64,000 nucleotides of DNA from Escherichia phage vB_EcoM_phAPEC6. The notes beneath the pieces were generated by a model, which did no database searches, was not told where the DNA came from, and saw only the letters and a program-made list of their open reading frames with translations. Positions 25,212-53,620 of this stretch are shown one piece after another. Every line of letters starts with the position of its first letter. Within the stretch, counting starts at the first letter, position 1. The stretch is from sequence record MK817115.1; one strand, given 5' to 3'. The position numbers were made by a program, and so were the translations under genes.

Positions 25212-25221
25212 GTCCTTTTGT

Positions 25222-25698: not shown

Positions 25699-25710
25699 TA
25701 TATTCTCCGA

Positions 25711-25737
25711 AAAGAAAGGACTCTGTGGTCAGAGTCC
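25711..25737 (-). terminator. Intrinsic terminator
   Basis: GGACTCTG-loop-CAGAGTCC with U-rich tail on minus strand. Confidence 0.5.
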
Positions 25738-25747
25738 TTATTTTAAA

Positions 25748-26005: not shown

Positions 26006-26036
26006 ATTGTTAAGAAGAACTTTTTGTTCTTCACAT

Positions 26037-26288: not shown

Positions 26289-26527
26289 CGACCTTCTTTA
26301 AGACCTTCAATAAACCCAGTACAACCACCTGGCACATAAATGTCATTTACGAAAATTTGAGGAACTTGACGAACTGGTTCACCACAAATTTCAGACAGTT
26401 TTGAACCATCGATACCTTCAGCAACAATATCTACAAACTCCATTTCAAATTTATTTTGTTCACATACAGCTTTTGCAGTGTCGCAAAATTTACAACCAGT
26501 CTTGCGACCATAAATTTTAACTTTCAT
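26279..26527 (-). CDS. Glutaredoxin-like protein (T4 NrdC-like)
   Basis: KIYGRKTGCKFCDTAK with CxxC redox motif in glutaredoxin position; 82 aa. Confidence 0.7.
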   Translation of the reverse strand: MKVKIYGRKTGCKFCDTAKAVCEQNKFEMEFVDIVAEGIDGSKLSEICGEPVRQVPQIFVNDIYVPGGCTGFIEGLKEGRWN

Positions 26528-26528
26528 G

Positions 26529-26930
26529 TTATTTCCTTCTATTTCTTTGAAAAGCTTTAACAGCTTTAATAATACTGTTACACATTCGTTCAGTCAAATA
26601 CTTTTGACATTCTCGTACATCAATGTACATGAACTTATCCAATTCTGGATGACTCTTACCATATCTATTAGTGTAAGTACTTTTACAAACTAATTCATCT
26701 GGTATTGGTTTGTCTTTGGCAGTATAAAAGAAAAGTACTAACCTTTTTCCCTTTCTATATGATACATCACCAAGAAACAGAAGATCATCTTCATCGATTT
26801 CGTATCCTGTCTCTTCGAAACATTCACGTACAGCAGCTTCTTTGAAAGTTTCATTACCCTCAGCTTTCCCTTTAGGTAAATCCCAATGATTCTGTCCGTG
26901 TTGTATGTCCGATAAGTATCTGACCATCAC
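26529..26930 (-). CDS. NUDIX hydrolase
   Basis: Nudix box GKAEGNETFKEAAVRECFEETGYE. Confidence 0.8.
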   Translation of the reverse strand: MMVRYLSDIQHGQNHWDLPKGKAEGNETFKEAAVRECFEETGYEIDEDDLLFLGDVSYRKGKRLVLFFYTAKDKPIPDELVCKSTYTNRYGKSHPELDKFMYIDVRECQKYLTERMCNSIIKAVKAFQRNRRK

Positions 26931-27038
26931 GATAAAATATTATACCACAACTATAACGCATATCTTATCTCTTTGTCATCAATCGATGTTCAGATACTAA
27001 TAATTATATCAGTTATTGGTTTTTTGTCCCACTATTTT

Positions 27039-28151
27039 TTAGAACATTTGTTTGATTGCTTCGTAACGAAGTTCACAAACAAAATCACGAATTTCTGACG
27101 TTTCAAGTTCACCATCTTTGACCATTTGCTGAATATCAGGCAATTCAACATCAGTATAACGATCATAAACTTTAATAATTAGATCTTCAAGTTCTAAATC
27201 AATTTCTTTTCGCAAAATGAAGTATTCCAAAACTTTATAAAGGAATTCTTCACCTCCGTTATTTTTAATATTCATATCCAATAAAATATTACCCATTTCA
27301 ATAGGGGTCTTTTTACGGAATGTTTTGATATCATCACGGAAACGTTTGATATAATTACTAAATTTAACATACTTAACTGGAACTTTAATAGCACCGTTAA
27401 GTACTGAATCATTATTTACTTCTTCATTTTCAAGAAGAATAGACCACAGAAAATATGGTTTATATACATCTGTACAGTTCTCTGCAATATAATCAATAAG
27501 GTCTAAATTCTTTTTGGTCAAAGATGTATTAAACACCTTTTCGTAATAACCAAATTTACTTAGCGTCTTAAGGAACTTTGCAGGCTTTTCTTCGGAAAAT
27601 GCTTTTTCGAATTCCACAAACACACGGTCAGGAACAAGATGATTTAGCTCACCACTATTGACCATTCCAATAGCGAGTTCCTCAGTGCTTTCATGGATAG
27701 TAAAGTCAGAATAACGAGTAGCAAATCGAGCAAGACGTAACACACGTAATGGATCTTCTTTAAAATGGTCAGACACATGACGTAGTACCTTGTTCTTGAT
27801 ATCAGCTTTACCACCGTATGGGTCAATGTGAATTTGTAGTACTGGATCATACGAAATTGCATTTATTGTTAGGTCACGGCGATACAAATCTTGTTCGAGT
27901 GTTACGCCTTTTGTATCCACTTCAAAGCCACCATATCCAGTACCAGTTTTACGCTCAGTACGGGCTAATGCGTGTTCATTACCTTCTGGACTTAGATATA
28001 CAGGGAAATCTTTACCTACTTGCTTATAGCCAATACTTTGCAAGTACTTAATATCAGATTCAGTTGCTCCGACAATGACATAATCTTTGTCTTTTGCACG
28101 AAGACCCATTAAACGGTCACGGACGTAGCCACCAACCAAATACTTTTTCAT
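27039..28151 (-). CDS. cca: CCA-adding tRNA nucleotidyltransferase (head domain, no obvious HD domain)
   Basis: MKKYLVGGYVRDRLMGL...ARTERK...RRDLTINA...EDPLRVLRLARFA matches bacterial CCA enzyme motifs. Confidence 0.85.
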   Translation of the reverse strand: MKKYLVGGYVRDRLMGLRAKDKDYVIVGATESDIKYLQSIGYKQVGKDFPVYLSPEGNEHALARTERKTGTGYGGFEVDTKGVTLEQDLYRRDLTINAISYDPVLQIHIDPYGGKADIKNKVLRHVSDHFKEDPLRVLRLARFATRYSDFTIHESTEELAIGMVNSGELNHLVPDRVFVEFEKAFSEEKPAKFLKTLSKFGYYEKVFNTSLTKKNLDLIDYIAENCTDVYKPYFLWSILLENEEVNNDSVLNGAIKVPVKYVKFSNYIKRFRDDIKTFRKKTPIEMGNILLDMNIKNNGGEEFLYKVLEYFILRKEIDLELEDLIIKVYDRYTDVELPDIQQMVKDGELETSEIRDFVCELRYEAIKQMF

Positions 28152-28152
28152 A

Positions 28153-28275
28153 TTATTCCCCCATCAACCAATCACGCAAACGTTCCCAGAAGCCTTTGGG
28201 CTTATATTCTGGGTATTCATATTCATCAGTGCCTTGCTCGGAAACACCCCAATCTTCTTCTAACATAGCAATCAT
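28153..28275 (-). CDS. Small acidic protein (40 aa), not in ORF track
   Basis: Hand-translated MIAMLEEDWGVSEQGTDEYEYPEYKPKGFWERLRDWLMGG; GGAGG RBS upstream; stop overlaps cca start. Confidence 0.4.
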   Translation of the reverse strand: MIAMLEEDWGVSEQGTDEYEYPEYKPKGFWERLRDWLMGE

Positions 28276-28286
28276 AATGCCTCCAA

Positions 28287-28709
28287 TTAAATTAATCTAT
28301 CACGTAGACGGTCGTAATATTTTTCGTGTATAGCTAGTATACACTGATATGCAGAATAGTCAATGCCAAATGTATCATCAATGAACATGTACTGATCAAG
28401 TGTTTCTGGTCCATTATCATCAACTGGTAATGTCCCTTCTTTTTTTGATAGGGTGTGCCACATCAACTCACTTTCAATATGGTGAGTTGCGTATGTCAAT
28501 TCAATCTTACTTTTTCTTAGTAAAATTAACAATTCATCATTGTCGTCGAGTGCATTACGAAATTTAATACGAACAGTACCCTGAAAATTATTAGTGTACA
28601 TAACACGATGTTGATTATATGTAACTAAACCACGTCTTTCAGTACTGATTTCATGTTCAGCAAAGTACTTTAACGTTTCATTAAATTTTGGAATTTTAGT
28701 AACGTCCAA
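28287..28709 (-). CDS. Hypothetical protein, paralog of 28696-29112
   Basis: Shared motif F(I/E)DDTFGID(Y/F)..YQ.I. Confidence 0.5.
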   Translation of the reverse strand: MDVTKIPKFNETLKYFAEHEISTERRGLVTYNQHRVMYTNNFQGTVRIKFRNALDDNDELLILLRKSKIELTYATHHIESELMWHTLSKKEGTLPVDDNGPETLDQYMFIDDTFGIDYSAYQCILAIHEKYYDRLRDRLI

Positions 28710-29112
28710 TCACATAATCCTCATAAAGTTCGTATACCCTCATTATACTCTGATATGTTTCAAAGTCAATGCCAAAGGTATCCTCAATGAACTGATATTG
28801 CATAAACTCTTCCTCTGTAGCAGCAATAGGAAGAGTCCCGTTTCGTTGTTCTGTTGATTGAACATCCTCAATATACATCAACACTATACTTTCATCCAGA
28901 TTTATATCTATCATAAAAACATCTTCACTATAAAATAAGTTATATGTACGGATGAAGAGATTTCCTGTTCTATCATAACTTGACACGTGTGTTTCATAAT
29001 ACATTTTATCTAAACTAAAGAACAAACCTGTACTATCTGGCTTTTTAGTATTTTTTAATTTAATTTCGATAGCATCAATCATAGGTTTAATATCAAACTT
29101 TTTCATATACAA
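28696..29112 (-). CDS. Hypothetical protein, paralog of 28287-28709
   Basis: Shared motif FIEDTFGIDFETYQSI. Confidence 0.5.
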   Translation of the reverse strand: MYMKKFDIKPMIDAIEIKLKNTKKPDSTGLFFSLDKMYYETHVSSYDRTGNLFIRTYNLFYSEDVFMIDINLDESIVLMYIEDVQSTEQRNGTLPIAATEEEFMQYQFIEDTFGIDFETYQSIMRVYELYEDYVIGRY

Positions 29113-29288
29113 ATCACATACTTATTACTATGTGGTTCGTAACAATATGAATCATTTACCTTAATACCAGGCTTAAGTTCAATAGTTGTTCCTGTTTCTG
29201 TACTGGGTTCTGCATCACAATAAATCATCACACCAACCCCGACTAGTAAGGATATGATACATATAACTATACATATTGTATATTCCAT
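29103..29288 (-). CDS. Small membrane protein
   Basis: 61 aa with N-terminal hydrophobic helix ICIVICIISLLVGVGVMIY. Confidence 0.4.
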   Translation of the reverse strand: MEYTICIVICIISLLVGVGVMIYCDAEPSTETGTTIELKPGIKVNDSYCYEPHSNKYVICI

Positions 29289-29301
29289 AAATTTATCTCC
29301 A

Positions 29302-29697
29302 TTATAAAAAGTAATTATACAGTTTATTGTACAATATAAAAAGGTCTTTCACATTATCATAAGTAATATCAGATACATCATGAATTAATGATAACTGAAA
29401 AAATGAAGCTTCGTCTATTTCTGCTGGAATTATAACATCACCATCGTCTTCGTCCATTTTATTGGTGTAGTATTTTATGTGATCTACATTCAACTCAATA
29501 GAAAACGCAATGTTGGTTTTTGTATAATCTTCAATTAATCCAATATATTGAGATTTTTCATTAATAAAAAATCCAATCCCAACACAACGGTTATCTGGAT
29601 ATGGATAGTACCATCTATTAATAACTAAGTGTTCAGGTAAGTCCATATCATGTGTTGATATTAGAGATTTTACAATTTCCATCCAGGAATAATTCAT
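29302..29697 (-). CDS. Hypothetical protein
   Basis: 131-aa ORF. Confidence 0.45.
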   Translation of the reverse strand: MNYSWMEIVKSLISTHDMDLPEHLVINRWYYPYPDNRCVGIGFFINEKSQYIGLIEDYTKTNIAFSIELNVDHIKYYTNKMDEDDGDVIIPAEIDEASFFQLSLIHDVSDITYDNVKDLFILYNKLYNYFL

Positions 29698-29713
29698 AAT
29701 TAAAACTCCATAA

Positions 29714-29740
29714 GAAAAGGGACAGAATTAATCTGTCCCT
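29714..29740 (-). terminator. Intrinsic terminator after HPF-like gene
   Basis: AGGGACAGA / TCTGTCCCT 9-bp stem, U-rich tail on minus strand. Confidence 0.55.
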
Positions 29741-29750
29741 TTAGTATATA

Positions 29751-30083
29751 TTACTCTTCGTTTTCTGTCAAATCATCAAGAACTGGGTGTTCTGGATGGT
29801 TTCGGCGGTGTAATTTAATGCTTTTGTCTTTACTGAATACAGTTTCCATTTTTTCAAATGAATCACCAATTGCTTTGTATAAATCTGCTGCATCGGCAGT
29901 AACTGATTTACTACCTGATGTTAGAGTCACAGAGTATTGAGACTTATGCTCTTTCTTCACATGAACTTCAATATCCATTACAGTTGAAGTACGGAACTTT
30001 TCAAGACATTTAGCACCATCGTAAATTGCATCTTGAATTGCAAGAGTAAAATCAACATTACCTTGAATATTTAATTTTAGCAT
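29751..30083 (-). CDS. hpf: Ribosome hibernation promoting factor (HPF/RaiA/YfiA family) homologue
   Basis: MLKLNIQGNVDFTLAIQDAI...LEKF...DLYKAIGDSFEKME aligns by eye with E. coli HPF MQLNITGNNVEITEALREFV...DMYAAIDGLIDKL; about 110 aa as short-form HPF. Confidence 0.6.
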   Translation of the reverse strand: MLKLNIQGNVDFTLAIQDAIYDGAKCLEKFRTSTVMDIEVHVKKEHKSQYSVTLTSGSKSVTADAADLYKAIGDSFEKMETVFSKDKSIKLHRRNHPEHPVLDDLTENEE

Positions 30084-40286: not shown

Positions 40287-40706
40287 TTACAACATTTTTT
40301 GAATATGTTCTACTAGTTCATACAGCTTAGTTTCATTATTCTCGAACTTTTCATCAACTTCAACATTGAATTTTTCTTCTAGTTCCATTACCATTTCAAT
40401 CCAATCAAGCCAATCAAAATGGAATTTTTCTTCGACTTCCAATTTAGTAAGATTGAAGTTCGCTGATACATCATTCTCTGATGTATCACAATAACGAGTA
40501 GTGATGAATTTGACAATTTCTTTTTCAACATCGTTTAATTCACGAGTTTGATATTCGGGCTGAAGATACCACCACTCTCCCTTATTAATAGATTCCAATT
40601 CTTGTTTGATTTCATGCATTACTTTATAACGGTCAGTACTTTTATGAATAGAATTGACTTCTTGGTTCAATACATGTAGTGCATTTTTAATACGTTCATT
40701 TAACAT
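40287..40706 (-). CDS. Hypothetical protein
   Basis: 139-aa ORF. Confidence 0.45.
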   Translation of the reverse strand: MLNERIKNALHVLNQEVNSIHKSTDRYKVMHEIKQELESINKGEWWYLQPEYQTRELNDVEKEIVKFITTRYCDTSENDVSANFNLTKLEVEEKFHFDWLDWIEMVMELEEKFNVEVDEKFENNETKLYELVEHIQKML

Positions 40707-40781
40707 TTTATCACCTTATAAAAAAAAGAGAACTCCATATGAAGTTCTCTGATTATACATAATTACTTTTTCTATGTCAAG

Positions 40782-43571
40782 TTATAAATCACGGAAACGA
40801 TTTGGTGTGTTTAAGCGGTACATTGAGTATAATCCCAATCCACGCATAATCTCACCTGCCCAGAAACCAAAAAACATACCATTATCAGTACCTTCTCTAA
40901 CTGCTGGACTCCATGAACCATTCATTGGTGAACCTGGATTTACAATAACATAATTCTTTTGAAGTTCGAGAACTAAGTTATCAGCGAGTGTTGTTAGACC
41001 TTCTATTTTACATCCAGCCAATCCAGCAGCACAAGCCCCAGCTAACCACAACCCACACATATGACCTGTAAAGTCCCAATCTGGACCTTCAACTGTGCCA
41101 TCTTTATTGAAGATTGTTGGTGAACGACCATCATTATCTTTTTGAAATTGAATTAAAAAGTGAATCCAATTCTCACAAAATTCAACAAGATCTGCTGGTG
41201 GTTCAATTCCTCTCTCTGCGAGTTCTTGCCATGCTCTGGCAGCCCCAAAGAACGCACGTGGTTCATACCCACTCCATGCTTGATCACCCCAATGTAGCAT
41301 AGTAAATGTATCTGGTTCACCATATTTTAAGTTATCCCAGCGGTTCCAAACATATGCTTGTGCACACGGACCAACAGTACCGAATTGTTGAGTAAACCAT
41401 GTTTGGGAATCTTTCATAAAGCTTAACATGTTTCCTAAGCGTGTGTTATCTACTGGCTGGTCTTTAAAACAATATATCACAGGATATTGATAACCTGGAT
41501 ACGGTAAACCACGCCATCCTGAATACTGGTTCGCATACGGGTCAGTGATGTTAGAAAATGGTATTGTTCCTGGTGTGTAATGCAATGAGTTTAACAAATA
41601 ATCCTTGATTACACAATCCCCTAACTGTGCAGTATATGGTGATTCACCTGCAATTGTTATTGAAAATGTCATAGTATAGTCATCACCGTCAGCATCCGTG
41701 TATAATTCTGGAATGTCATTAATACAATACCAATCAATTATTGCAGCAACACCATCTACTGGGGTTGTATCAGGTAAAATAGTAATATCTTCTAGTTCAC
41801 TATAAACTGGTGCATCTGGTCTTGGGTCAGAACTTGGATGATTTGGCTGATACCCAGATAAACGTAATGTATCGGAACTTAGTGTGATTGTAGTCCATTC
41901 CCCGTGTGTTGCAGGAATCATCCACCACCATCTCCAACCATTATCATCTACAATTCTTATATTGTAATCATCTTCATATGAACGATAGGTAAAAGATTTA
42001 ACTTCAGACTTATTTGTTGCTAATAGCCAAAATCCAATAACAGCACCATCATCTTCACCACAAACTAACTGATTAATGGTATCGCGGCGTGTAACTAATA
42101 TATCAGTACTATATATCATTTCGGACGTTGCTGCACCATAAGGAACAACAATTCTATTATCAGCAATTATATAAGGGGAACCATCTGCTTTCTTTTCTCT
42201 AACAAATGCACTTAAAGGTGTTAATGAATGTGTGATATTTTGGTCTTTACTTTCCGGTAAGCCACAACGATAACGAACAACATCATGGTCATTTTTTGTT
42301 TTTGACAATTCCAGTACTGGTTTAAATGATAACGGCTTACCATCATCACATACACCACCATAGTCTACAAGTAATTTAGAATCAGCATTGACCCTGAACC
42401 AAATAGCTTGTTGTTCCATAGTACTTTGTGCACTTTGGTCTTGCCTGATAGTAATATATCCTAGAGAATTTCTACCAAACTTAGCAATAGCATCACTAGG
42501 ATAAAAATATTCATAGGAAATACCATCAGTGAATGGTGTGGTTACAATTGTACTTTGTCTGAAAAATTTATCTCTGGAGTCAATATCACCATAAGCATAA
42601 CACGTTAGTAGTGAACATTTCCAACCCAAATAATGTTTTCTTTCTTTTGTTATTTTATATAACAAATAAGAAGCATCACTAAACCATAATTCTGCATCTG
42701 ATGCGTTATCAGCAAATTCCAAATCAATTGGAACATGAAGAGGGCGGTTGTGTTGCATTTCATTTCGTTGAATTATCACACCACCATATTCTACTGGTTG
42801 ACGATTTGCAAAATTTAATTTATATACACCATTAATTGTTGTATTCTTTAATTGAACAGTTCCTTTTTCAGATTCGTCAAAACCTTCTGCTAAAATATTA
42901 CCATCCCAGTCGATTTTTCTACCCATGAAATCGATAATCCAGTCAACATCATATTGTTCACCTGGTGTATCCCAATCAACACTACCATCTGGTAATAATG
43001 CTTTTACTGAAGCATTTATTTGGTTCCATGCTAACGCACCTTTGAATGCAAATGTCACTTTATCCAAGAACTGACCATAATATGGTGCACCATGTGGTAT
43101 TTTACATTGACCATTAGTAAATGTAAATTCTACTCCCTTGAAACCACCATGTGTGGGCCAGCCATCATCAGCTAAAGGCCAGTTAGCCAATATAGGTTCT
43201 TTGGCATTAACTATCCAGTTACATTGTAGTGGTGTAGGTGGATCTGGTAATTCACGTCCAGCATAAAAGTACTGATGATATGCGTCCCAATACCACTTTG
43301 CCTTATCTAAAAACATTGGATCATTTGTTGCCAGATACGCATAAATGTATCCTAAAATTAATAGACTTTGACCTTCTGTTGTCCCGTCACCGTTTGGTTG
43401 ACCTTCCATTGCAGAATAGTTAATAAAATGACGGTTGTTCGCCAAAACACCCTGATTATTCACCACATAATGTTGTACTGTTGGGTCTATTGTATCACCA
43501 GTATTTCTTTCAATAAATTTGTGATGCCCATAAAGAAGTTGTACAATATTATCAATATTATTGTTTAACAT
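40782..43571 (-). CDS. Large aromatic-rich protein (possible carbohydrate-active or virion-associated enzyme)
   Basis: 929 aa, Trp/Tyr-rich (WRWWWMIPATHGEW); no definitive motif. Confidence 0.5.
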   Translation of the reverse strand: MLNNNIDNIVQLLYGHHKFIERNTGDTIDPTVQHYVVNNQGVLANNRHFINYSAMEGQPNGDGTTEGQSLLILGYIYAYLATNDPMFLDKAKWYWDAYHQYFYAGRELPDPPTPLQCNWIVNAKEPILANWPLADDGWPTHGGFKGVEFTFTNGQCKIPHGAPYYGQFLDKVTFAFKGALAWNQINASVKALLPDGSVDWDTPGEQYDVDWIIDFMGRKIDWDGNILAEGFDESEKGTVQLKNTTINGVYKLNFANRQPVEYGGVIIQRNEMQHNRPLHVPIDLEFADNASDAELWFSDASYLLYKITKERKHYLGWKCSLLTCYAYGDIDSRDKFFRQSTIVTTPFTDGISYEYFYPSDAIAKFGRNSLGYITIRQDQSAQSTMEQQAIWFRVNADSKLLVDYGGVCDDGKPLSFKPVLELSKTKNDHDVVRYRCGLPESKDQNITHSLTPLSAFVREKKADGSPYIIADNRIVVPYGAATSEMIYSTDILVTRRDTINQLVCGEDDGAVIGFWLLATNKSEVKSFTYRSYEDDYNIRIVDDNGWRWWWMIPATHGEWTTITLSSDTLRLSGYQPNHPSSDPRPDAPVYSELEDITILPDTTPVDGVAAIIDWYCINDIPELYTDADGDDYTMTFSITIAGESPYTAQLGDCVIKDYLLNSLHYTPGTIPFSNITDPYANQYSGWRGLPYPGYQYPVIYCFKDQPVDNTRLGNMLSFMKDSQTWFTQQFGTVGPCAQAYVWNRWDNLKYGEPDTFTMLHWGDQAWSGYEPRAFFGAARAWQELAERGIEPPADLVEFCENWIHFLIQFQKDNDGRSPTIFNKDGTVEGPDWDFTGHMCGLWLAGACAAGLAGCKIEGLTTLADNLVLELQKNYVIVNPGSPMNGSWSPAVREGTDNGMFFGFWAGEIMRGLGLYSMYRLNTPNRFRDL

Positions 43572-43572
43572 A

Positions 43573-44109
43573 TCATACTCCTGCTCTAATTAATGCACCG
43601 TACCATGTAACTCCTTTATCATATGTTTCTAATGAAATAATATCTTTTTCACCAATTTCATAAGAAAGAACAACTGGTCTGTTATATGACCATTTAACAT
43701 TAGAACCCCAATTAACTAGGTTTGAACCTGTTTGTTGTGTTAATAGGATGGTAATTGAATAAACTTCAGTAGGAGCCGTACCAATCGAAATAGTAGTATT
43801 TCTATCAGATAAATTAATATTAAAAACAGAATTGCCCGACAGTGGATTAATTAAAATATTATTAGAACTTAATACATTATATAACTTATTACTTGCACTA
43901 TCATATAATGTTACCCATTCTGTTTCATGATTCTCGTTAGTAGCTTTAGCTTTTATCTTAACATTATTTTCAGAATCAGTCATTCCAGTCCATCCAGATA
44001 TAATAAAAGAACTGTTTTTATTAGTTCCGAATGATGCAATCACAGAATCACTAAGAGAACTATCTTCACCATCAATAGATCCGAGTACTGACAATGTTAA
44101 AACCATCAT
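43573..44109 (-). CDS. Hypothetical protein (possible structural)
   Basis: 178-aa ORF; its 5' end overlaps 63-aa ORF 44072-44263 in another frame. Confidence 0.4.
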   Translation of the reverse strand: MMVLTLSVLGSIDGEDSSLSDSVIASFGTNKNSSFIISGWTGMTDSENNVKIKAKATNENHETEWVTLYDSASNKLYNVLSSNNILINPLSGNSVFNINLSDRNTTISIGTAPTEVYSITILLTQQTGSNLVNWGSNVKWSYNRPVVLSYEIGEKDIISLETYDKGVTWYGALIRAGV

Positions 44110-44277
44110 TTTTAATGTCTACACCAGTAGCACCAGAAAAATTATTTTGAAATTTAATAACTCCGGTAGTGTGGATATCTGTGAAAATTTGTTGTGCCAT
44201 ACTTAATCCTTGTGTTAATTTATATTGAGTATTTATTGAGTGTAATGGCATTTTTAGTACCATTACACTTGTATATG

Positions 44278-45510
44278 TTACTTATACCATTGCATTTCTC
44301 TAATATCAATGATAATTTTTGATGCTAACTTGATGTTTGGTTTTTTAGGAAGTACTGATTTCTTATATAGAACATCACGAATGTATTGTACTTTATCATC
44401 GAAATATTCTAATACTTCTTCATACTTCCATTTACCATTACGAATATCCATCAACATTTGTGCATCTGGTCGTTTAACTTGAATAATTCCACTTTGTAAC
44501 GCTTCTTCTGCACTATTCAAAAGTCGGATTGTGTGCATAGCATGTTTACAATCGTATCCGTGTTGTGATTCTAAAATAGCACGTTTGGCATTACGATTTT
44601 CTTTCCATTTATGATAACTTTTCCTATTCTCACTATTTTCCTGATATTCTTTTTCGTTAAATTTGACAATTAGTTCTGGTTTGGTTTTCAACTCTTCAGT
44701 ACTACGTTCTTTTGAAAAATAACGCAATGAACCATCATGGTTAATAGTGCTTTCATTAGGATTCTTAACAATCGCAAAAATGTTTTCTCCGTAATGAATT
44801 AGTTCATAACCATTATTAAAATTCAATAAATTGAAATCACGATCAAGAATTTTTTCAGTAGTGTAGTTATGCACTAATCTTACGAAATGATATTGCTTTA
44901 ATGGATTTTTCGAAACTAACTGCAATGATGTATCACGCATATATTTTTCAAAATCAATCTTTTTAGCATTAAATGGATGTAAGTTGGATGTATCTAAACG
45001 TTCAACAAGATACTGTGGGAATGAATCATACATCCACGCAAGAACCTCATCGACAGGGTGTTCTTCTAAAATCTCATTTAATCGTTTTTCAGCAATACGC
45101 TCTTTATCCATCCAACCGTGATGATTTGTCATACGCTTAATCTGATTATATGCATATCCAGTGTATGAAAATGCAATCTTGGAACTAAGAAGTTTTTGGT
45201 TAAATGAACGAAGATAGTCATAAATTTCAGTACTTTCCACAATGTGTTCAGGTTCAACCCAAAGTGATTCAAGAATATTAGGGTTAGCTTCAGTGTATAA
45301 TTTTAAATACTGATTCAACTCATAGAATTTAGTATCTTCTTCGCTTTTGTCAGCTACCTCGTTGACCTTATAGAAGGGTGTAAGAATAAATTCTTTATTA
45401 GCAAGAAAAATACCACGATAATCAGTATCACTTTCCGGTGTACTGGTTCCGTAGGCTTGTGACCCAGCCAAGTGTTTCACTATTGTTTGTTCAATATATT
45501 GGTTATTCAT
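44278..45510 (-). CDS. Pol-beta superfamily nucleotidyltransferase
   Basis: N-terminal GSQAYGTSTPESDTDYRG (G[SG]...D.D nucleotidyltransferase signature); 410 aa. Confidence 0.55.
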   Translation of the reverse strand: MNNQYIEQTIVKHLAGSQAYGTSTPESDTDYRGIFLANKEFILTPFYKVNEVADKSEEDTKFYELNQYLKLYTEANPNILESLWVEPEHIVESTEIYDYLRSFNQKLLSSKIAFSYTGYAYNQIKRMTNHHGWMDKERIAEKRLNEILEEHPVDEVLAWMYDSFPQYLVERLDTSNLHPFNAKKIDFEKYMRDTSLQLVSKNPLKQYHFVRLVHNYTTEKILDRDFNLLNFNNGYELIHYGENIFAIVKNPNESTINHDGSLRYFSKERSTEELKTKPELIVKFNEKEYQENSENRKSYHKWKENRNAKRAILESQHGYDCKHAMHTIRLLNSAEEALQSGIIQVKRPDAQMLMDIRNGKWKYEEVLEYFDDKVQYIRDVLYKKSVLPKKPNIKLASKIIIDIREMQWYK

Positions 45511-45908
45511 AGATAAATTGTTAACTCCTTTAAGAAACCATTATAATAACGATTAAAGTCATGTTCTAATGTTTTATAATCATCAAAACTAAAACCTAAA
45601 TTGATAATTGTATCTTCTTGAAAGAAAGTTTCTTCATTCATACATTCAATAGGTTCGTAATTAATTCCACCTTTGAAAACTTTTGTAAAAAACATTCCAT
45701 CATTATTAATTTCAACATACATAAAATTATTTTCTGGGTCACGAGGACAGACGATATTCAGTGAACTATTTCCACTTGTATTGTACTCATAAGAAATTAT
45801 ATCAAAAGAATCAATACCATAACACTTAGATTTTTCTTTATCGCCAAATACTTTTCTATCTGTACTCATATTGCGTATAGTGCTATAGATATCATCAACT
45901 GTAGTCAT
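45507..45908 (-). CDS. Hypothetical protein
   Basis: 133-aa ORF. Confidence 0.45.
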   Translation of the reverse strand: MTTVDDIYSTIRNMSTDRKVFGDKEKSKCYGIDSFDIISYEYNTSGNSSLNIVCPRDPENNFMYVEINNDGMFFTKVFKGGINYEPIECMNEETFFQEDTIINLGFSFDDYKTLEHDFNRYYNGFLKELTIYL

Positions 45909-45910
45909 AG

Positions 45911-46420
45911 TTAACCACCATACTTTGACTTGTATGTTTCAAGTGATAAAGATATACGATTTTGCTTTTTAATTCTTTCATCAATATCCTTTGAATTCTT
46001 CACACTTCGGTATACGTCAGCTAATAAATTATAATCTTCTTTATTTGAGCTATGCTGTGTCCAACCTATGTCTGTTTTAATACGAACATTTGCTTTATTT
46101 GACGAGTAAAAGAAACTGAAACCATTTGACCCATCAAAAATATCAAAAGTATCTACCCAATCACCATAAGGAAAACTCATCGGGACTGACTCGTGGTCGA
46201 TTGTGATATCCGATAAATTTTTTGAACAGTACTTCGCAAAGTGATAAACAATTGGATCACATTTAGATAATTCATATTTGTATTCAATGATAGTTTTTCT
46301 ATTAGCATCATTGATAGCATATTCTTTCATCAATGGGCTTTTTTTGATGATAAGAGTCCACAGAAACGATTCTAATCCGGTTTCATCAACTTTTTGTTTC
46401 TTTTTGAAAAATGAAATCAT
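45911..46420 (-). CDS. Hypothetical protein, tandem paralog family member 3
   Basis: Shares D.RK.(I/L)IEYKYELSK-type motif with the two upstream genes. Confidence 0.5.
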   Translation of the reverse strand: MISFFKKKQKVDETGLESFLWTLIIKKSPLMKEYAINDANRKTIIEYKYELSKCDPIVYHFAKYCSKNLSDITIDHESVPMSFPYGDWVDTFDIFDGSNGFSFFYSSNKANVRIKTDIGWTQHSSNKEDYNLLADVYRSVKNSKDIDERIKKQNRISLSLETYKSKYGG

Positions 46421-46938
46421 TTATATAAACCCTTAATTTTCTGTCTATTATGTATATCATTTTGCTGGATTTTCAATTTAGTAAGGTTGTTTCTTACACC
46501 TTCAACTCCACGCATTATTTGTAACATAATTAGTGATTCGTCATATGTTAGTACATTGCTATTATTATCGATATATACTTTCACTCCACTTTCAAGATAA
46601 TCATTTTCTTTGGAGTTAAAGTTTCTAATAGCAAACTTAACGCCATTTGATGTATCACTGAAAACATATCGTTCCGCACCGTAGAATGTTTTTCCACGAA
46701 ATAAACCGCCGTCTTCCCACTTCCAACGACTAGATTCATAATCATTAACGTAATCAATGATTAAAGAAAGTAAAGGGTGTTTGCTCAATTTATATTTTGC
46801 ATCTAACAGGATACGTCTATCATTATCTGTGGTGATAATATCCTTTAGTGAGTAGCTTTTAGATATAATTTTAAAGATAATTTCATGCCAAATTAAAGTA
46901 CTGTTTTGTTTTCCAACTGATCCAAAAAACATATCCAT
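46417..46938 (-). CDS. Hypothetical protein, tandem paralog family member 2
   Basis: DNDRRILLDAKYKLSK motif. Confidence 0.5.
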   Translation of the reverse strand: MDMFFGSVGKQNSTLIWHEIIFKIISKSYSLKDIITTDNDRRILLDAKYKLSKHPLLSLIIDYVNDYESSRWKWEDGGLFRGKTFYGAERYVFSDTSNGVKFAIRNFNSKENDYLESGVKVYIDNNSNVLTYDESLIMLQIMRGVEGVRNNLTKLKIQQNDIHNRQKIKGLYK

Positions 46939-46944
46939 TCCTCA

Positions 46945-47511
46945 TTAGTATAAATCAGTAATGTCTTTGTATGCATTAATCTGTTTTTGTTGTAATGAAA
47001 GTTCATTGAGTTTAGTTACCATTTTATCTACACCAACACGTGTATAGAAAATAATAAATGAATCTAAATTGCCTAGAGTAATTCTTGAACTGTAATTTGA
47101 AAGTTTTCTTGCATAAACATAAATTTCTTCTTCACTTGGTAAACGTTTCTCAATCGGCCAGCTTTCCACACCATTCGGCTCATAATCGATTTCAAATTCA
47201 ACTCCCATCACTGTGTCTTGAATGAGATCCGTATATGAACCACCGTAAAAATACTCTCTTGGTTTGGCTCTCCAACGAGGACTAAATGGGTCAGATGCGT
47301 ATTCTTTTACAAATTTGTAAAAGGACATTTTACTGAGCATATACTTCATCTCAATTAGTGCTTTGCGGTCATCATCAGTTTTAAACTCTGCTTTGAGCGA
47401 TGGACTTTTACACAGTAACTTAACTAAATTGATGTACATCTTTAATGTACGTTGTTCTTTCATTTCTTTGATTTTGTGACGTTTTGGTGGCGGTAATAAA
47501 GATTTGACCAT
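46945..47511 (-). CDS. Hypothetical protein, tandem paralog family member 1
   Basis: DDDRKALIEMKYMLSK motif. Confidence 0.5.
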   Translation of the reverse strand: MVKSLLPPPKRHKIKEMKEQRTLKMYINLVKLLCKSPSLKAEFKTDDDRKALIEMKYMLSKMSFYKFVKEYASDPFSPRWRAKPREYFYGGSYTDLIQDTVMGVEFEIDYEPNGVESWPIEKRLPSEEEIYVYARKLSNYSSRITLGNLDSFIIFYTRVGVDKMVTKLNELSLQQKQINAYKDITDLY

Positions 47512-47544
47512 AATTTCCTCCTATTTTTATTCAATTATACACAT

Positions 47545-47572
47545 AAAAGAAAAGCCCGTCAATAGACGAGCT
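47545..47572 (-). terminator. Intrinsic terminator
   Basis: AGCUCGUC-UAUU-GACGGGCU (one G-U pair) followed by UUUCUUUU on minus strand. Confidence 0.5.
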
Positions 47573-47578
47573 TTAAAT

Positions 47579-50308
47579 TTATTTCCAACGTGTACCTGGA
47601 CCTGATGGTACACCAGTACTGGCAGGTATCGCTGAACCACGTTTCGTTGTACTTGGACGATATGTCAAAAAACGAGTTACTTTTTCTGTATCAATTGAAG
47701 TTATTCCTGAAGTTCCAGTAACTATCTTACCAATGTAAGTGCTAGTTAAAGATTCATCAATTGTTTCAGTACTAATAACATATGACGCTTTCTTAGTATT
47801 CCTGTTCATTTGTATATACAAATAGAACGTAGTATTAGCTGGGTTACTTTTTACAGTACTTAAATCAACACTTTGTATAGGTAGTCTGTCGAAAATTCCA
47901 CCTAAAAACACCGGAACTTCACGTGTAAAGTACACTGAGAATCCTTGTGCAACGTCTTGTGATACTACCACAATCTTTTCTTTAACGCTACCATTTCCAC
48001 TAATTAAACCATCCATTTCAGCAGATGTTGTACCAAAAACGCTGAATACAGATTTGGTTTGATAGTCAGAATCTTGAAAATTGTAATATCCAAAACCAAC
48101 ACCAGGAATAACACCATGTTGATATGCTGCACCAAGTTGGATGTAACTAGATGATAAAAAACGATTTGATGTTATGACACCATCTACTGTTTTAGCTATC
48201 ATCATCTTAAATTGTGCATTACCTGGTTGTGAAAATTGATGAACAGCATCAACACCAATGTAACCAAATCCTGAATATTTTGCAACTGTTAGACCAGTAC
48301 AACGTTTCATATATGCTTCAGTAATAATTCCTGTAACAGAACTAAGTGTCTCATATCTAGTACTCACCAATGTAGCTGAAGTTATGTTAGTTCCAGATAA
48401 TACAACATCAACTTCGGCATAGATTGCATAACCTTGGTTATTGTTAAGATTATATGCTGAAACTACTGCGATGGATTTAGAAAAAGTATTATCAGGTACA
48501 TAATATAATACAATTTGTCCAGATAGTGTGCCAACAATGCCAGAGTTTCCTATATTAGCAAAAATATCTTGTTTTAATGATTCTAATACCGTTGGTTCTA
48601 TTGTATATGTTTCATCAAATTCTAAAGTATCTGGGTTTAATAATCCACCACTTGTTTTATATACACCTTCAATGAATGATGTTCCATAGCATCTAACACT
48701 ACCATCGGTATCAACAAGAGAAATCATAGCAGTGTATGTAAAATCATCGCCTATTTGTTTACGATTAGATTGTGGTGCAAAACCATTTAATGTAGTATTA
48801 TTTTGAACTGAGTTATATTGATATGTTGGTTGTGAACCTATTTCAGAAAAAACAGTATTATTATAATTATATGTTACATCATCATACGTACCAGAACATG
48901 CTAATAATATTTTTCTATTATCGATGAAACGTACACCTAAAAGGTTTGCACCAACAGCACTACCAAAAACTGGTAAAACGTTTGCATTTATAACGTTACT
49001 TGCGGTTCTAGTACTGGCAACCCATGAATCAAACGGTGTACCACTAACCTTATATCGTTGTAGACCATAAAATTCAGTTGAACTCCATCTAAATTTAGAT
49101 GCAAATACCAAACCATCTTTAGTTTGACATAAACCACCTGCGTTTCCTAATACACCAGCAGCAGTTGTCCCTGTGAAGTTGACCATATTAATTTCAAATG
49201 GGTTAGAAACTTGAAATCCATTATTATATGAAACAGTTGCAGGTGCACGAGCACTACCATCTAGTGACATAGATTTTGAGTTTATATTATAAACAAAACT
49301 TATTCCAGTACCATAAACTGTTGAAATATACAAAGGTGTAACCATTCGATGTGTTGGATATAAAGTTACACGTATTTTTGATAAATCAGTACTAACGTTG
49401 GCTTGAATGTTAAAGTCTGTATAGTCTGAAAATTCTACACGTGATACTGGTGATGTAACTTCGAATAATGAATCCGAGCTAGTACCAACACTATATAATT
49501 TATCGAACACTCTTATGTTATTAGATGCAGAATAACTTGTGTTTCGAACAGTTTGACCTGATAACCCAGTAACTTTTGTTAATGATGCCATTGAGCTTGC
49601 TTTCACATCACTTAGCTCTACTGTATAAATTGAAAGTGCTAATCCTAAATTAGAAACACTTTTATCTTTACACCAAATATAAACCTTTGTCCCAACAATA
49701 TGTGTATATATTGGCATATCATTACCAAAAGAAGTACTTGGCACTTTAGCATGAATATGTGATATTTCGTTAAATGTGCCATTGGTTATAGTAAAAATAT
49801 AATTATCTTCAGTACTTAAACATCCAAGCATCTCATAACCATTAGAGCCAATAAAATACTTAATATTTTCAGTACTACTCATAATTGAAGGTTTATACAT
49901 TGAATTGGTTGAAATAACACTTTCTTGTGAAATCATAGTTATATTTCGGAGTTCTCGTATAAATGAATAATAAAAACCTTTAGTACTACCATTGGTTCCG
50001 CTACGCAGAACAACGGCGGTTCCATCATCTTCAATAATTGTTGGCTGAACTACTTGGTCACTTGACATAGGTGTAGCACCTTCATACGACCCACTTACGT
50101 TTAATGGTAAGTAATCCATTTCTCCTACACGTGATATAGGCAACATATCTAAAATACTTTGAACTTCTGAACGCTTATATATTGGATATTGAACAATTCC
50201 AGTATTGGCATTCGGTGAGGTTCCATTAAAAGTACGCATAGCGTACCTTTGTCCAATTGCCAAGTTCCCAAGGATCTCGGCACTTCCTATAATTCGTTTT
50301 GATGACAT
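47579..50308 (-). CDS. Tail fibre or receptor-binding-like protein, paralog A
   Basis: About 909 aa from internal start MSSKRIIG (RBS AAGGAAAAG); N- and C-terminal blocks shared with 50924-53620 (KSNPANTTFY; TGTSGIT...RPS). Confidence 0.55.
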   Translation of the reverse strand: MSSKRIIGSAEILGNLAIGQRYAMRTFNGTSPNANTGIVQYPIYKRSEVQSILDMLPISRVGEMDYLPLNVSGSYEGATPMSSDQVVQPTIIEDDGTAVVLRSGTNGSTKGFYYSFIRELRNITMISQESVISTNSMYKPSIMSSTENIKYFIGSNGYEMLGCLSTEDNYIFTITNGTFNEISHIHAKVPSTSFGNDMPIYTHIVGTKVYIWCKDKSVSNLGLALSIYTVELSDVKASSMASLTKVTGLSGQTVRNTSYSASNNIRVFDKLYSVGTSSDSLFEVTSPVSRVEFSDYTDFNIQANVSTDLSKIRVTLYPTHRMVTPLYISTVYGTGISFVYNINSKSMSLDGSARAPATVSYNNGFQVSNPFEINMVNFTGTTAAGVLGNAGGLCQTKDGLVFASKFRWSSTEFYGLQRYKVSGTPFDSWVASTRTASNVINANVLPVFGSAVGANLLGVRFIDNRKILLACSGTYDDVTYNYNNTVFSEIGSQPTYQYNSVQNNTTLNGFAPQSNRKQIGDDFTYTAMISLVDTDGSVRCYGTSFIEGVYKTSGGLLNPDTLEFDETYTIEPTVLESLKQDIFANIGNSGIVGTLSGQIVLYYVPDNTFSKSIAVVSAYNLNNNQGYAIYAEVDVVLSGTNITSATLVSTRYETLSSVTGIITEAYMKRCTGLTVAKYSGFGYIGVDAVHQFSQPGNAQFKMMIAKTVDGVITSNRFLSSSYIQLGAAYQHGVIPGVGFGYYNFQDSDYQTKSVFSVFGTTSAEMDGLISGNGSVKEKIVVVSQDVAQGFSVYFTREVPVFLGGIFDRLPIQSVDLSTVKSNPANTTFYLYIQMNRNTKKASYVISTETIDESLTSTYIGKIVTGTSGITSIDTEKVTRFLTYRPSTTKRGSAIPASTGVPSGPGTRWK

Positions 50309-50324
50309 CTTTCTTTTCCTTAAT

Positions 50325-50912
50325 TTACCAACCAATTGTACCAGTTTCTGATGGTTTTCCAGTACTGACTGGGAATGAAGAACCTTTTTGTGTAACACTA
50401 GGTCTATATGTACTAAATCTGGATACTTTATTAATGTTTATATTTGTAATACCACTTGTACCAACGGTCAGTGTTCCAATAAACATTATAATTTCAGATT
50501 CTTGTATTTGTGTTGGTGATATTTTATAAATTGGTTCACCGAGAACTAACGTTGCATATACGTATTGTGTTTGTGTTCCAGATGAAACAGTTGAAGCAAA
50601 AATAGAAACTGCTGGAAATTTATAAAGATAACCACCAATAAATGATGGTATCTGTCTATTAAATGTAAGACTATAGCCTGATGAAGTAATATTTAGACTA
50701 GCGTCATCATACAATTCTCCGTATTGTGTAAGTGGTAATCCATTGACAATAAAGTTAACTTCATCTTTGGTAATAGAGGGGAATGTACATTCCCCATTTG
50801 AATTTGTTGGGTAATAAGTCATATTATTACCTAATACACCAAGACCAGTACTTTTACCCTGAACTGTAACTTGTTGCATTGCCTTAAGGTCTGCTCTTAT
50901 TTTATATGCCAT
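50325..50912 (-). CDS. Short fibre-related protein carrying only the shared C-terminal module
   Basis: 195 aa; C-terminus GTLTVGTSGITNININKVSRFSTYRPSVTQKGSSFPVSTGKPSETGTIGW parallels C-termini of both flanking large genes. Confidence 0.5.
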   Translation of the reverse strand: MAYKIRADLKAMQQVTVQGKSTGLGVLGNNMTYYPTNSNGECTFPSITKDEVNFIVNGLPLTQYGELYDDASLNITSSGYSLTFNRQIPSFIGGYLYKFPAVSIFASTVSSGTQTQYVYATLVLGEPIYKISPTQIQESEIIMFIGTLTVGTSGITNININKVSRFSTYRPSVTQKGSSFPVSTGKPSETGTIGW

Positions 50913-50923
50913 TATGTAATCCT

Positions 50924-53620
50924 TTACCAGTTTATGGTTCCTGTTTGTGATGGTAGACCGTAGCTAACTGGGAACGATGAACCTGCTGATTCAAGTGAAG
51001 CACCAAATATATCTAAACGGGAACGTTTTTGTATATTAATTGTTTCGATTTGAATTGCATTAGTTTGAATTGTACCTATCCAAAAAATATTATATGCAGT
51101 TGTCCCTGTTTCAGAAATAACATCAGTAGTTATGTAATAGTTTGCCAATCCTTGTTCCAATTTAACATATACATAAAATGTTGTATTTGCTGGATTAGAC
51201 TTAATAGTTCTCAAATCAATATTTGAAACTGGTAGTGAAAATGACTTACCTGAAAGAATAACTGGTGTTTCCTCTGTAAAATATACAATAAACCCTTGAG
51301 CAACGTCCTGGGATACTACGTTAATTGGGCTACCTTGTGCAGTCCAGTTATTATAGTCTGCAATCGTTGTTCCATATTTTTTGAATGTCATTTTATTTGA
51401 GTAATCCATTGGTTCAAAAATTCCAAAACCAATACCAGGTAATGCTGCTGGTTGACTTCCTTGTTCATAACTGGCATGAGATCCAGTAATTATAAAACTT
51501 GTAAATTGTGCAGTTGATTTAGTTACATATGCTCTAAATTGATGAGTTGCAGTATTACCTATTGTTGGATGTGATAATGGGTCAGAACCACCAATGAAGT
51601 AGAATGAACCACCATCATATATGGTCAAACCAACAGAAGAAGATGCAATCGAACCATTCCCAGTTGGTGTAAAGTTATCACCATACGTATTCTCAAGTAC
51701 TAAACGCTTAAATGTAATAGATGTAATATTACCAACTCTAGTATTGACATTAACTTCAGCAATTCTAATATAGTTTCTATAATCATTAGTAATTGTACTC
51801 AACATAACAAAAGCTGGAATGTCTGTTTGTTGTGGAACAAATAGTGTCATATCACGGTATGCTTGTGCTGATAAATTCCAATCACTTAGAACTTTGGCAT
51901 ATTCAGTATTTCTAAAATTGTCCAGTACTGATTGTGTAACGCTTATAATTCCTGTGCCATTTAAGTTTTTATCATAGGATAATGATTGTGAATAACGTTG
52001 CCCAACCATAAAAATACCACCATTGGTTGTGACAGTTGACCCAGAAATACTACTAATAAAAATTCTATTATTTGCATTATCATCAACATTAGCACGTTCA
52101 ACTGTAGGTTCATAACCTTGTATTGTTCCTAAAGATAATGATTTAAATGTAAAATTAGGAGTACTTTTATGAACTGCATATGATGGTCTAAATCCACCAC
52201 TACCTGATGCACGTGAATATTGTTTAGTACTGTTATCTGGTAGTAATTCTACACCATTAATAAATGAACCAACCGCTGAACCAAAAGACGGGCGAACTAT
52301 ACCACCTTTGAAGTCAGTAGAAAGTACAGCACGGACATTCAGCATACTATAAACTATTTGAATAGGAAACTTAGCTTTTTGCATAAGTAATGGTTCTGCT
52401 AAGTTTGGACATGTAGTACAAAAAGCTTCACCAGAATTCAAATAAAAATATGAACTATAAATGTTTCTTGCATTTGCATGGTTATACAATGGATCGTTAT
52501 TTAAAACGTTACCAGTAGGAACTAATGCCGAACCAGTATTAGTTATAACTAATGGTGCTTGATATGAACCAATATCGTTACCCGCATCTAATGTACATTG
52601 TTTAGTACTCATATTGAACACAAAACTGTAACTATGCTGTGGACGTGTATTATATGTTGCCATTGTAAACCAAGCGTCCCCGTTCATTCTAAAGCGGAAA
52701 TTCTGCGTTCCTGGCTGCTGTGCAACATATAAATCAATTGATGTCATGTAAATCCCAATACCACGTAGATTTTGTGGAACATACACATAAGGTTTATCAG
52801 CAATATTTGTTGATGTTACCTGATTAGTAATAACCATATTATTTTGTGCAGAATATGTCGTGTTATAAAATGTTTTAGTAGTCCATCCAGTAATTCGAGT
52901 TGCAGTATAAGTACCATTGCTTATATTATAAACAACTTTTACAACAACTAATTGTAGTTGGTTATTTTCATTAAGTACGTTAAAAACATATATAGAACCA
53001 TCTTCTGCCATCATAGCATATTCAATACCACCTTCAGGTGATATATCTGCTTGGTTAACGAAAAAACCAGTATGCAATTTATCATCTAATGTACCATTGG
53101 TAATTGATATGAACAAACCATTAGTACTGTTAGAAGTATCAATATATCTACCGAGTAAAATATTTGGATCAGTATTGTATAAACCAATCGCAACTCTATT
53201 TGAACCAAAAAACCCAGGCTTGTATTGACGACTAGTGTTAATTGTACGGCTCATGTCATCAACTGATAATGCGTTAGCCAAATATGAATAAAATAATCCC
53301 TCAACACTACCGTTTGTCCCACTACGTAAAAGTACTAGTGTACCATCGTTTTCTAATAAAATTTTATTTCTACGTTGTGACTGGTTTTCTGATGCACCAT
53401 TGAAATCCCCAGAAACACCCGCAGGTAGATAGTTTTGTGAACCATAATGGGAGATTGGCATCATACTTACTATATCTAGTACTTCATCTCTGGAATAAGT
53501 ATCTAATTCCAAGTTACCGTTGGAATCAAAAACTTGTTCATTTATTCCTTGAATTGTTCTTTTACCATTAACTGTCACATTATGTGTGACATCTAAGCCA
53601 CCATATATTTTCTTTGACAT
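50924..53620 (-). CDS. Tail fibre or receptor-binding-like protein, paralog B
   Basis: 898 aa; shares N-terminal (YLP.GVSG, LLRSGTNGS) and C-terminal blocks with paralog A. Confidence 0.55.
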   Translation of the reverse strand: MSKKIYGGLDVTHNVTVNGKRTIQGINEQVFDSNGNLELDTYSRDEVLDIVSMMPISHYGSQNYLPAGVSGDFNGASENQSQRRNKILLENDGTLVLLRSGTNGSVEGLFYSYLANALSVDDMSRTINTSRQYKPGFFGSNRVAIGLYNTDPNILLGRYIDTSNSTNGLFISITNGTLDDKLHTGFFVNQADISPEGGIEYAMMAEDGSIYVFNVLNENNQLQLVVVKVVYNISNGTYTATRITGWTTKTFYNTTYSAQNNMVITNQVTSTNIADKPYVYVPQNLRGIGIYMTSIDLYVAQQPGTQNFRFRMNGDAWFTMATYNTRPQHSYSFVFNMSTKQCTLDAGNDIGSYQAPLVITNTGSALVPTGNVLNNDPLYNHANARNIYSSYFYLNSGEAFCTTCPNLAEPLLMQKAKFPIQIVYSMLNVRAVLSTDFKGGIVRPSFGSAVGSFINGVELLPDNSTKQYSRASGSGGFRPSYAVHKSTPNFTFKSLSLGTIQGYEPTVERANVDDNANNRIFISSISGSTVTTNGGIFMVGQRYSQSLSYDKNLNGTGIISVTQSVLDNFRNTEYAKVLSDWNLSAQAYRDMTLFVPQQTDIPAFVMLSTITNDYRNYIRIAEVNVNTRVGNITSITFKRLVLENTYGDNFTPTGNGSIASSSVGLTIYDGGSFYFIGGSDPLSHPTIGNTATHQFRAYVTKSTAQFTSFIITGSHASYEQGSQPAALPGIGFGIFEPMDYSNKMTFKKYGTTIADYNNWTAQGSPINVVSQDVAQGFIVYFTEETPVILSGKSFSLPVSNIDLRTIKSNPANTTFYVYVKLEQGLANYYITTDVISETGTTAYNIFWIGTIQTNAIQIETINIQKRSRLDIFGASLESAGSSFPVSYGLPSQTGTINW

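Follow-up and report, generated by a model that had tools for sequence, protein, structure and literature searches.

Five adjacent genes in a 64,000-nucleotide (nt) stretch of the genome of Escherichia phage vB_EcoM_phAPEC6 (MK817115.1) appear, from their sequence, to form one operon behind a conserved terminator and a sigma70-type promoter. They encode three tandem paralogs of an uncharacterised jumbo-phage family, a small acidic protein of 133 amino acids (aa), and a 410-aa nucleotidyltransferase (NTase) that is assigned to the RlaP family. Here, we describe this locus (all positions refer to the whole stretch, hereafter the window) and weigh what it may do. We give an even chance to the explanation that it is an early counter-defence operon, in which RNA-end repair by the RlaP enzyme is combined with paralogs that bind host factors.

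Positions 43500-48000 are 99.9% identical in Escherichia phage BF17 and 99.6% identical in phage 121Q, and at least 80% of this region is covered in approximately thirty further records, all of Asteriusvirus jumbo coliphages or Salmonella phages. By sequence, the source phage is a 121Q/BF17-type jumbo coliphage of the genus Asteriusvirus. The five open reading frames (ORFs), all on the minus strand, lie where a first-pass annotation, made by a model from the letters and their ORFs, had placed them; they are considered real genes because they are conserved among relatives with ratios of nonsynonymous to synonymous substitution (dN/dS) below 1. Their 121Q counterparts are gp502-gp506, of which gp506 is annotated ‘nucleotidyltransferase’ and the other four are annotated ‘hypothetical’.

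The 410-aa protein matches Pfam family RlaP (PF10127) at 58.8 bits against a gathering cutoff of 23 (E 8.4e-16), and no other Pfam family was returned for it at E <= 1. PHROG family phrog_388, ‘nucleotidyltransferase’, aligns with residues 4-409 (E 2.5e-76), and BLASTP aligns NrdC.11 of phage T4 (E 1e-13), with a second segment at residues 275-377 (E 2e-5). A search returned 845 homologues, and PF10127 is found in nearly all of those listed. The Pol-beta signature that the first-pass annotation had recognised, HLAGSQAYGTSTPESDTDY, comprises GS...DxD and a third aspartate (residues G16, S17, D28, D30, and D59). These five residues are invariant among seventeen homologues, down to 44% identity, so that loss of the catalytic residues is not seen in them, and they line up with the same residues of T4 NrdC.11. 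Many residues at 302-359 are invariant in the same seventeen sequences, and the protein appears to possess the helical C-terminal domain by which the substrate cleft of RlaP proteins is completed. It is therefore best regarded as a NrdC.11-like member of the RlaP family. No meaningful match to any non-RlaP family was found in NCBIfam and Pfam, the PolyA_pol head domain of CCA-adding enzymes and poly(A) polymerases (PF01743) was not matched in Pfam, and a sequence search of solved structures returned nothing.

Enzymes of this kind are already known, and this one is already annotated and in itself ordinary. RlaP was found to be the commonest nucleotidyltransferase of jumbo phages in a 2021 comparative study, with a distribution that mirrors that of RNA ligases (PMC7824862). 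Two Pseudomonas RlaP enzymes (PfRlaP and PaRlaP) add one or two nucleoside monophosphates at the 3'-OH of RNA, with a preference for damaged RNA; T4 NrdC.11 was named as a member, and the family was proposed to answer ribotoxins that remove a nucleotide after the cut (preprint 10.64898/2025.12.29.696909, December 2025). The phAPEC6 protein shares with these proteins an N-terminal Pol-beta domain with GS...DxD and third aspartate, followed by the C-terminal helical domain, and 121Q, a phage of the same type, encodes an RNA ligase and a polynucleotide kinase. Unlike them, it carries an insertion of approximately 62 residues (about 139-200, with approximate bounds) after the NTase domain, which is missing from homologues of approximately 350 aa and sets the NTase of the Rak2-like clade apart from its insert-less relatives. 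Also unlike them, its gene—known here from sequence—is preceded by orphan genes rather than placed in an RNA ligase operon.

The 188-, 173-, and 169-aa proteins encoded upstream are, by sequence comparison, true paralogs, as the first-pass annotation had held. BLASTP aligns the first two over nearly their full length (E 7e-16, 30% identity) and aligns the 169-aa protein with each of the others through the N-terminal block only (E 1e-4 and 3e-4). Two PHROG families of uncharacterised jumbo-phage proteins each match all three copies: phrog_18641 scores 8.3e-80, 3.4e-85, and 4.6e-5 against the 188-, 173-, and 169-aa proteins, respectively, and phrog_7868 scores 5e-6, 6.3e-12, and 5.6e-58. The shared block already noticed in the three copies, D..R..(I/L)(I/L)..KY.LSK, varies little or not at all in an alignment of 38 family sequences (D38, R41, K48, Y49, and S52 in the numbering of the 173-aa protein). 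A profile search without filters, run on 1.84 billion cluster representatives, returned only 35 proteins; most are full-length (approximately 140-210 aa), with a few fragments and one protein of 2,278 aa that gave eleven short matches. The family is confined to Rak2-like jumbo phages. Between 35 and 37 of the 38 gathered members match phrog_18641 or phrog_7868.

Members of the family are basic (median isoelectric point [pI] 8.9) and have no strongly hydrophobic segment. No Pfam domain was found in any of the 38, and sequence searches of solved structures with either paralog profile returned nothing. A weak NCBIfam match of the 188-aa protein to DUF2290 (E 0.003) was disregarded, and local profile searches led to rejection of the 133-aa protein as a fourth paralog. 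The first AlphaFold2 (AF2) model, built from eleven close sequences, was unusable (predicted local distance difference test [pLDDT] 48); the 38-sequence alignment yielded a model of paralog 2 with pLDDT 85 and a predicted template modelling score of 0.78. In this model, four N-terminal helices bearing the conserved motif are followed by a four-stranded sheet and then by a C-terminal helix of 40 residues, through which the protein may oligomerise. Foldseek found no similar solved structure in the PDB. The ‘head plus long helix’ proteins XRCC4, PAXX, and SAS-6 resemble the model in shape only (marginal scores, 3-9% identity), and the paralogs differ from them in having an extra N-terminal helical module; membership of that group was dismissed, the sequences being unrelated. 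What is added here to phrog_18641 and phrog_7868 is a predicted fold, a limited distribution, a conserved position and promoter, and a pattern of divergence.

Paralogs were found upstream of the RlaP gene at every locus of the Rak2-like supergroup that was examined, in two to four copies, and a homologue of the 939-aa protein encoded next upstream in phAPEC6 precedes them at each locus where the upstream gene was tested. Local profile searches revealed three copies with no extra genes among them in phages A4 and JNE01 and in Salmonella phage SE_PL, two such copies in Klebsiella phage Muenster, and three copies with a DUF4326 gene among them at two metagenomic loci (L010 and L013). Cronobacter phage GAP32 has three to four copies and Serratia phage BF has four, interleaved in both with the same annotated set of genes: a Thg1-like tRNA-His guanylyltransferase (a tRNA repair enzyme), a DNA methyltransferase, and an NrdA.1-like gene. 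Homologues of the 133-aa protein were found only beside the NTase, in Asteriusvirus, Alcyoneusvirus, SE_PL, and L013. Neither the paralogs nor the 133-aa protein occur at three insert-less RlaP loci, a profile scan of T4 38-64 kb gave no paralog homologue near nrdC.11 (best E 0.07; neighbours include MobD.1 and NrdC.8), and neither the window nor 121Q 176-221 kb and 285-335 kb yielded additional copies.

Best-hit analysis points to position-specific orthology of the paralogs across genera. The lineage of copy 3 is old, being common to Muenster, GAP32 (gp148), and L013, and copies 1 and 2 are nearer to each other, with a single counterpart of both in Muenster. The triplication is therefore ancient and ordered rather than a fluctuating array of variable copy number, a point that the first-pass annotation had suggested checking. 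In the records of two Asteriusvirus phages of Salmonella, SD-1_S14 and SD-2_S15, paralogs 1 and 2 are truncated or internally deleted (163, 114, and 115 aa), which could reflect sequencing frameshifts or real decay. Tandem arrays of paralogs are common in the 121Q genome: at 177-188 kb, outside the window, approximately twenty consecutive hypothetical genes encode proteins of 140-200 aa, several of them weakly similar to one another (E ~1e-5), and this array is unrelated to the paralog family described here.

The genes of the locus differ greatly in their divergence. Between phAPEC6 and A4, amino-acid identity is 86% for the NTase, 60% for the 133-aa protein, 49% for the 939-aa protein, and 31-39% for the paralogs; between phAPEC6 and Ecwhy_1, it is 82% for the NTase (with synonymous sites saturated), 89% for the 133-aa protein, 71% for the 939-aa protein, and 91-93% for the paralogs (synonymous divergence 0.1-0.5). 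A sliding-window comparison with Ecwhy_1 delimits a block at approximately 45830-47560, holding the three paralogs and the promoter, that is 87-98% identical in nucleotides and sharply bounded, with flanks mostly at 60-85%. This pattern indicates recent exchange of the block by recombination; the paralog block therefore seems to have its own exchange history and very divergent allelic forms. To judge from the comparison with A4, the paralogs evolve much faster than the NTase. The notion of a fast-evolving tandem locus holds as far as divergence and cassette exchange are concerned, but the array itself is ancient and its order fixed.

The arrangement of the five genes and of the signals around them (Table 1) is that of a single transcription unit. 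Gaps between the genes are 2-6 nt or are replaced by ATGA stop/start overlaps, of which one joins paralog 2 to paralog 3 (46417-46420) and another joins the 133-aa gene to the NTase gene (45507-45510), so that the latter two are translationally coupled. The large gene upstream stops at 47579 and is followed by an intrinsic terminator, and the -35 box of the operon promoter, which has eleven of twelve consensus matches, lies inside the loop and the 3' arm of the terminator hairpin. A Shine-Dalgarno sequence, AGGAGG (47522-47517), precedes the ATG of paralog 1 at 47511. This composite of terminator and promoter is kept in Ecwhy_1, A4, JNE01, SE_PL, GAP32, Serratia BF, L010, and L013, with compensatory substitutions in the hairpin stem across genera and with TTGAC and the -10 box retained. 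A further hairpin directly after the NTase stop has no U-run and was not called by the terminator scan; it may mark where the operon transcript ends or may stabilise that transcript.

Table 1. Genes and predicted signals of the RlaP operon of phAPEC6, with positions in the window.
Feature	Position	Strand	Details
Terminator hairpin of the upstream large gene (intrinsic)	47551..47574	-	Terminator scan; 10-bp stem then T-run; RNA fold -17 kcal/mol, z -4.3
Sigma70-type promoter	47534..47562	-	TTGACG (47562-47557), 17-nt spacer, TATAAT (47539-47534)
Paralog 1	46945..47511	-	188 aa, pI 9.2; phrog_18641/phrog_7868 family; position-1 orthologue in A4 and JNE01
Paralog 2	46417..46938	-	173 aa, pI 9.2; phrog_18641/phrog_7868 family; AF2 model
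Paralog 3	45911..46420	-	169 aa, pI 8.7; phrog_18641/phrog_7868 family; most divergent copy
Small acidic protein	45507..45908	-	133 aa, pI 4.4; phrog_22376
RlaP-family Pol-beta nucleotidyltransferase	44278..45510	-	410 aa; PF10127, phrog_388
12-bp hairpin directly after the NTase stop	44239..44269	-	RNA fold -16 kcal/mol, z -2.75

The operon promoter differs from what stands before the virion gene at 50924-53620, a TATAAATA-like motif. That gene is preceded by the late-type motif TATATAAATA, similar motifs stand before the tail sheath and tube genes, and 121Q encodes a late sigma factor. These features, together with the sigma70-type promoter, lead us to infer that the operon is probably transcribed early by the host RNA polymerase. 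Additionally, none of its products is a recorded virion component. The published virion proteome of phAPEC6 lists gp314c (105.34 kDa), gp315c (4.66 kDa), and gp323c (98.62 kDa) and nothing numbered between them, and these masses match exactly the 929-, 42-, and 898-aa proteins of the window. The seven genes that lie between the mass-matched proteins are therefore not in the list: those of the NTase, the 133-aa protein, the three paralogs, and the 939/886-aa and 195-aa proteins.

A role of the NTase in RNA repair fits the genomic context, to judge from gene annotations. In 121Q, genes annotated as RNA ligase (gp438) and polynucleotide kinase (gp443) lie 35-38 kb from the NTase gene and outside its operon. 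These are annotated homologues of the T4 enzymes Pnkp and Rnl1, which repair tRNA cut by the anticodon nuclease PrrC; an RlaP step has been proposed to come before ligation where a nucleotide was lost. Unlike in T4, the components are scattered over ~35-38 kb in 121Q. The insert-less RlaP gene (~350 aa) directly follows a PolyA_pol-family gene at two of three metagenomic loci, one of them with a Pnkp gene nearby; at the third, its neighbours are gp32-, RecA-, and UvsW-like replication and recombination genes. The position of the paralogs, too, seems to collect RNA-repair or conflict genes: the Thg1-like enzyme of GAP32 and Serratia BF is one case, and another is DUF4326 of the metagenomic relatives, a predicted counter-defence enzyme to which the literature assigns, also by prediction, the processing of ADP-ribose-derived phosphates. 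Elsewhere in the window, at approximately 25000-30000, a second cluster (gp533-gp544 in the 121Q annotation) is translation- and ADP-ribose-related. It comprises a CCA-adding enzyme (gp539, annotated ‘tRNA nucleotidyltransferase’), an HPF/RaiA ribosome-hibernation-type protein, a Nudix hydrolase, a glutaredoxin, and a macro-domain protein.

In the explanation that we favour at even chances, the operon would be transcribed early by the host RNA polymerase, unrelated to the virion genes that surround it. The RlaP enzyme would most probably restore one or two nucleotides at the 3'-OH of host-cleaved RNA, chiefly tRNA, and the phage polynucleotide kinase and RNA ligase would then reseal the repaired RNA, so that anticodon nucleases that also trim a nucleotide would be countered. 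The paralogs, as small soluble proteins, would bind variable host factors and serve this counter-defence programme as inhibitors or modulators; their fast divergence and the exchange of their cassette suggest such partners. This reading of the paralogs was chosen because of the early promoter, the non-virion status, the cassette-like divergence, and the conflict-related neighbours. The first-pass annotation had likewise proposed a host-interaction or anti-defence role, and it is by inference that we, too, arrive at this role, as we do at the early timing, the action in RNA repair in vivo, and the functions of the paralogs and of the 133-aa protein.

Several points weigh against this explanation. 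The RNA ligase and kinase genes lie outside the operon, the putative early timing is read from the promoter consensus only, and the NTase is linked to RNA repair by family membership and context, not by experiment. Any role of the paralogs is guesswork because no domain or fold can be recognised in them. Wherever dN/dS could be estimated, it is below 1 and gives no direct sign of positive selection, although synonymous sites are saturated in most comparisons, several distant ones among them, which limits the ratio as a test. The synteny of paralogs and NTase within one phage supergroup could be simple inheritance. Finally, the exchanged block holds the paralogs but neither the 133-aa gene nor the NTase gene, and its boundaries argue against a tight functional unit.

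Other explanations have to be considered alongside it. The paralogs, and perhaps the 133-aa protein, might be subunits or substrate adaptors of the insert-bearing RlaP; the C-terminal helices of the paralogs would then hold together a multi-subunit complex for RNA-end repair that selects particular damaged RNAs. Five genera or more, and metagenomes as well, retain the order of paralogs, small protein, and NTase, the genes are translationally coupled, the paralogs and the 133-aa protein occur only beside an insert-bearing RlaP among the loci examined (three insert-less loci have neither), the paralogs are basic (pI ~9), in keeping with nucleic-acid binding, and the small protein is acidic, and position-specific orthology suggests non-redundant roles. 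Nevertheless, we consider this arrangement unlikely: unrelated genes (methyltransferase, Thg1, NrdA.1-like, and DUF4326) stand between paralogs and NTase in some genera, recombination breakpoints part the two, the paralogs diverge far faster than the NTase whereas tRNA substrates are conserved, and the co-occurrence is phylogenetically non-independent. More speculative, and quite unlikely in our estimation, is a multi-subunit machine unique to Rak2-like jumbo phages, in which paralogs, 133-aa protein, and insert-bearing RlaP together would neutralise and repair the damage of RNA-targeting host defences, with the paralogs as target-recognition or nuclease-inhibiting subunits.

Little credence can be given to the proposal that the paralogs serve the large related proteins encoded upstream (898, 195, and 939/886 aa, one of which is a virion protein) as assembly chaperones or attachment factors, with the adjacency of the NTase being incidental. 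The 939-aa homologue does stand immediately before the paralogs in every relative tested for it, three large paralogs are matched by three small ones, and absence from virions is normal for chaperones. The conserved terminator and sigma70-type promoter, however, separate the two sets, whereas a late-type motif precedes the virion gene; no known tail-fibre chaperone family of Pfam is matched by any of the 38 members; recombination histories differ against Ecwhy_1 (87-98% identity in the paralog block, ~60-84% in the 939-aa gene); and the two paralogs of Muenster follow unrelated tail-fibre genes. Similarly improbable is a role as small DNA-binding regulators of phage or host transcription, which would have a helix-turn-helix (HTH)-like N-terminal module and dimerise through the C-terminal helix. 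The paralogs are basic, and the block D..R..II..KY.LSK...Y.L is predicted to form two helices and a short turn; there are also two weak matches (E 0.005 each), from one member apiece, to a ‘transcriptional regulator’ PHROG and to the C-terminal part of an HNH-endonuclease PHROG. All of these similarities are, however, below significance, none of the 38 members matches an HTH family of Pfam, and Foldseek against the PDB found nothing. As for the NTase, its Pol-beta GS...DxD signature is generic and is also common to signalling and toxin-type classes (cGAS/CD-NTase-like, MNT, or MenT-like), so that it could belong to one of these and have no part in RNA-end repair. We regard this identity as extremely unlikely, since Pfam matches RlaP only and well above threshold, the PADLOC defence models returned no match at E <= 1, and homology to phrog_388 and T4 NrdC.11 is full-length, including the C-terminal helical domain. 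The first-pass annotation had left it open whether the enzyme makes or caps a nucleotide signal or modifies tRNA or protein; tRNA modification comes closest to what RlaP does, and neither a cGAS/DncV/CdnE-like signal synthase nor an MNT was detected by PADLOC or Pfam (E <= 1).

The flanks of the operon are of some interest in their own right. Upstream, the proteins of 939 aa (47579-50398), 195 aa (50325-50912), and 898 aa (50924-53620) are mutually paralogous (phrog_3573/26864) and have a C-terminal module in common. With its listed GTG start, the 939-aa ORF would have 74 nt in common with the 195-aa gene; the real start is therefore probably a methionine codon that gives 886 aa, the length annotated in 121Q. 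Directly downstream of the NTase gene, a tail module (40782-44200) encodes a 929-aa tail protein, a 178-aa tail fibre, and the 42-aa virion protein, the last behind a TATAAAT-like motif. Ecwhy_1 has no such module at this position, its NTase gene being followed immediately by the homologue of 121Q gp510, and Ecwhy_1-like and some other records miss the first 690-780 nt of the 43500-48000 query (the region of the 178-aa gene and the end of the 929-aa gene). The module looks like an exchangeable host-range cassette. Beyond it, a 139-aa protein (40287-40781) has weak similarity to acyl-carrier proteins (PF14573, E 0.0016, below threshold; acyl-carrier-protein PHROGs, 1e-7) and reads DWLD where acyl-carrier proteins usually have DSLD. 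Its gene has a perfect TTGACA-17-TATAAT promoter upstream, with a terminator-like hairpin between promoter and ribosome-binding site.

The enzyme itself adds little to what is known of RlaP. The useful part of this locus is its context, i.e. an orphan family with a confident model but no known fold, found in fixed order behind a conserved host-type promoter and directly upstream of an RlaP gene at every locus of the supergroup that was examined. If the paralogs share the pathway of the enzyme, they would offer a handle on the host nucleases that RlaP answers in vivo, a question left open by the work on the Pseudomonas enzymes (preprint 10.64898/2025.12.29.696909). If they act outside that pathway, they would still be worth considering as new proteins through which therapeutic jumbo coliphages may interact early with their hosts. 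In either case, the orphan paralog family and its conserved RlaP operon constitute a modest, testable lead.

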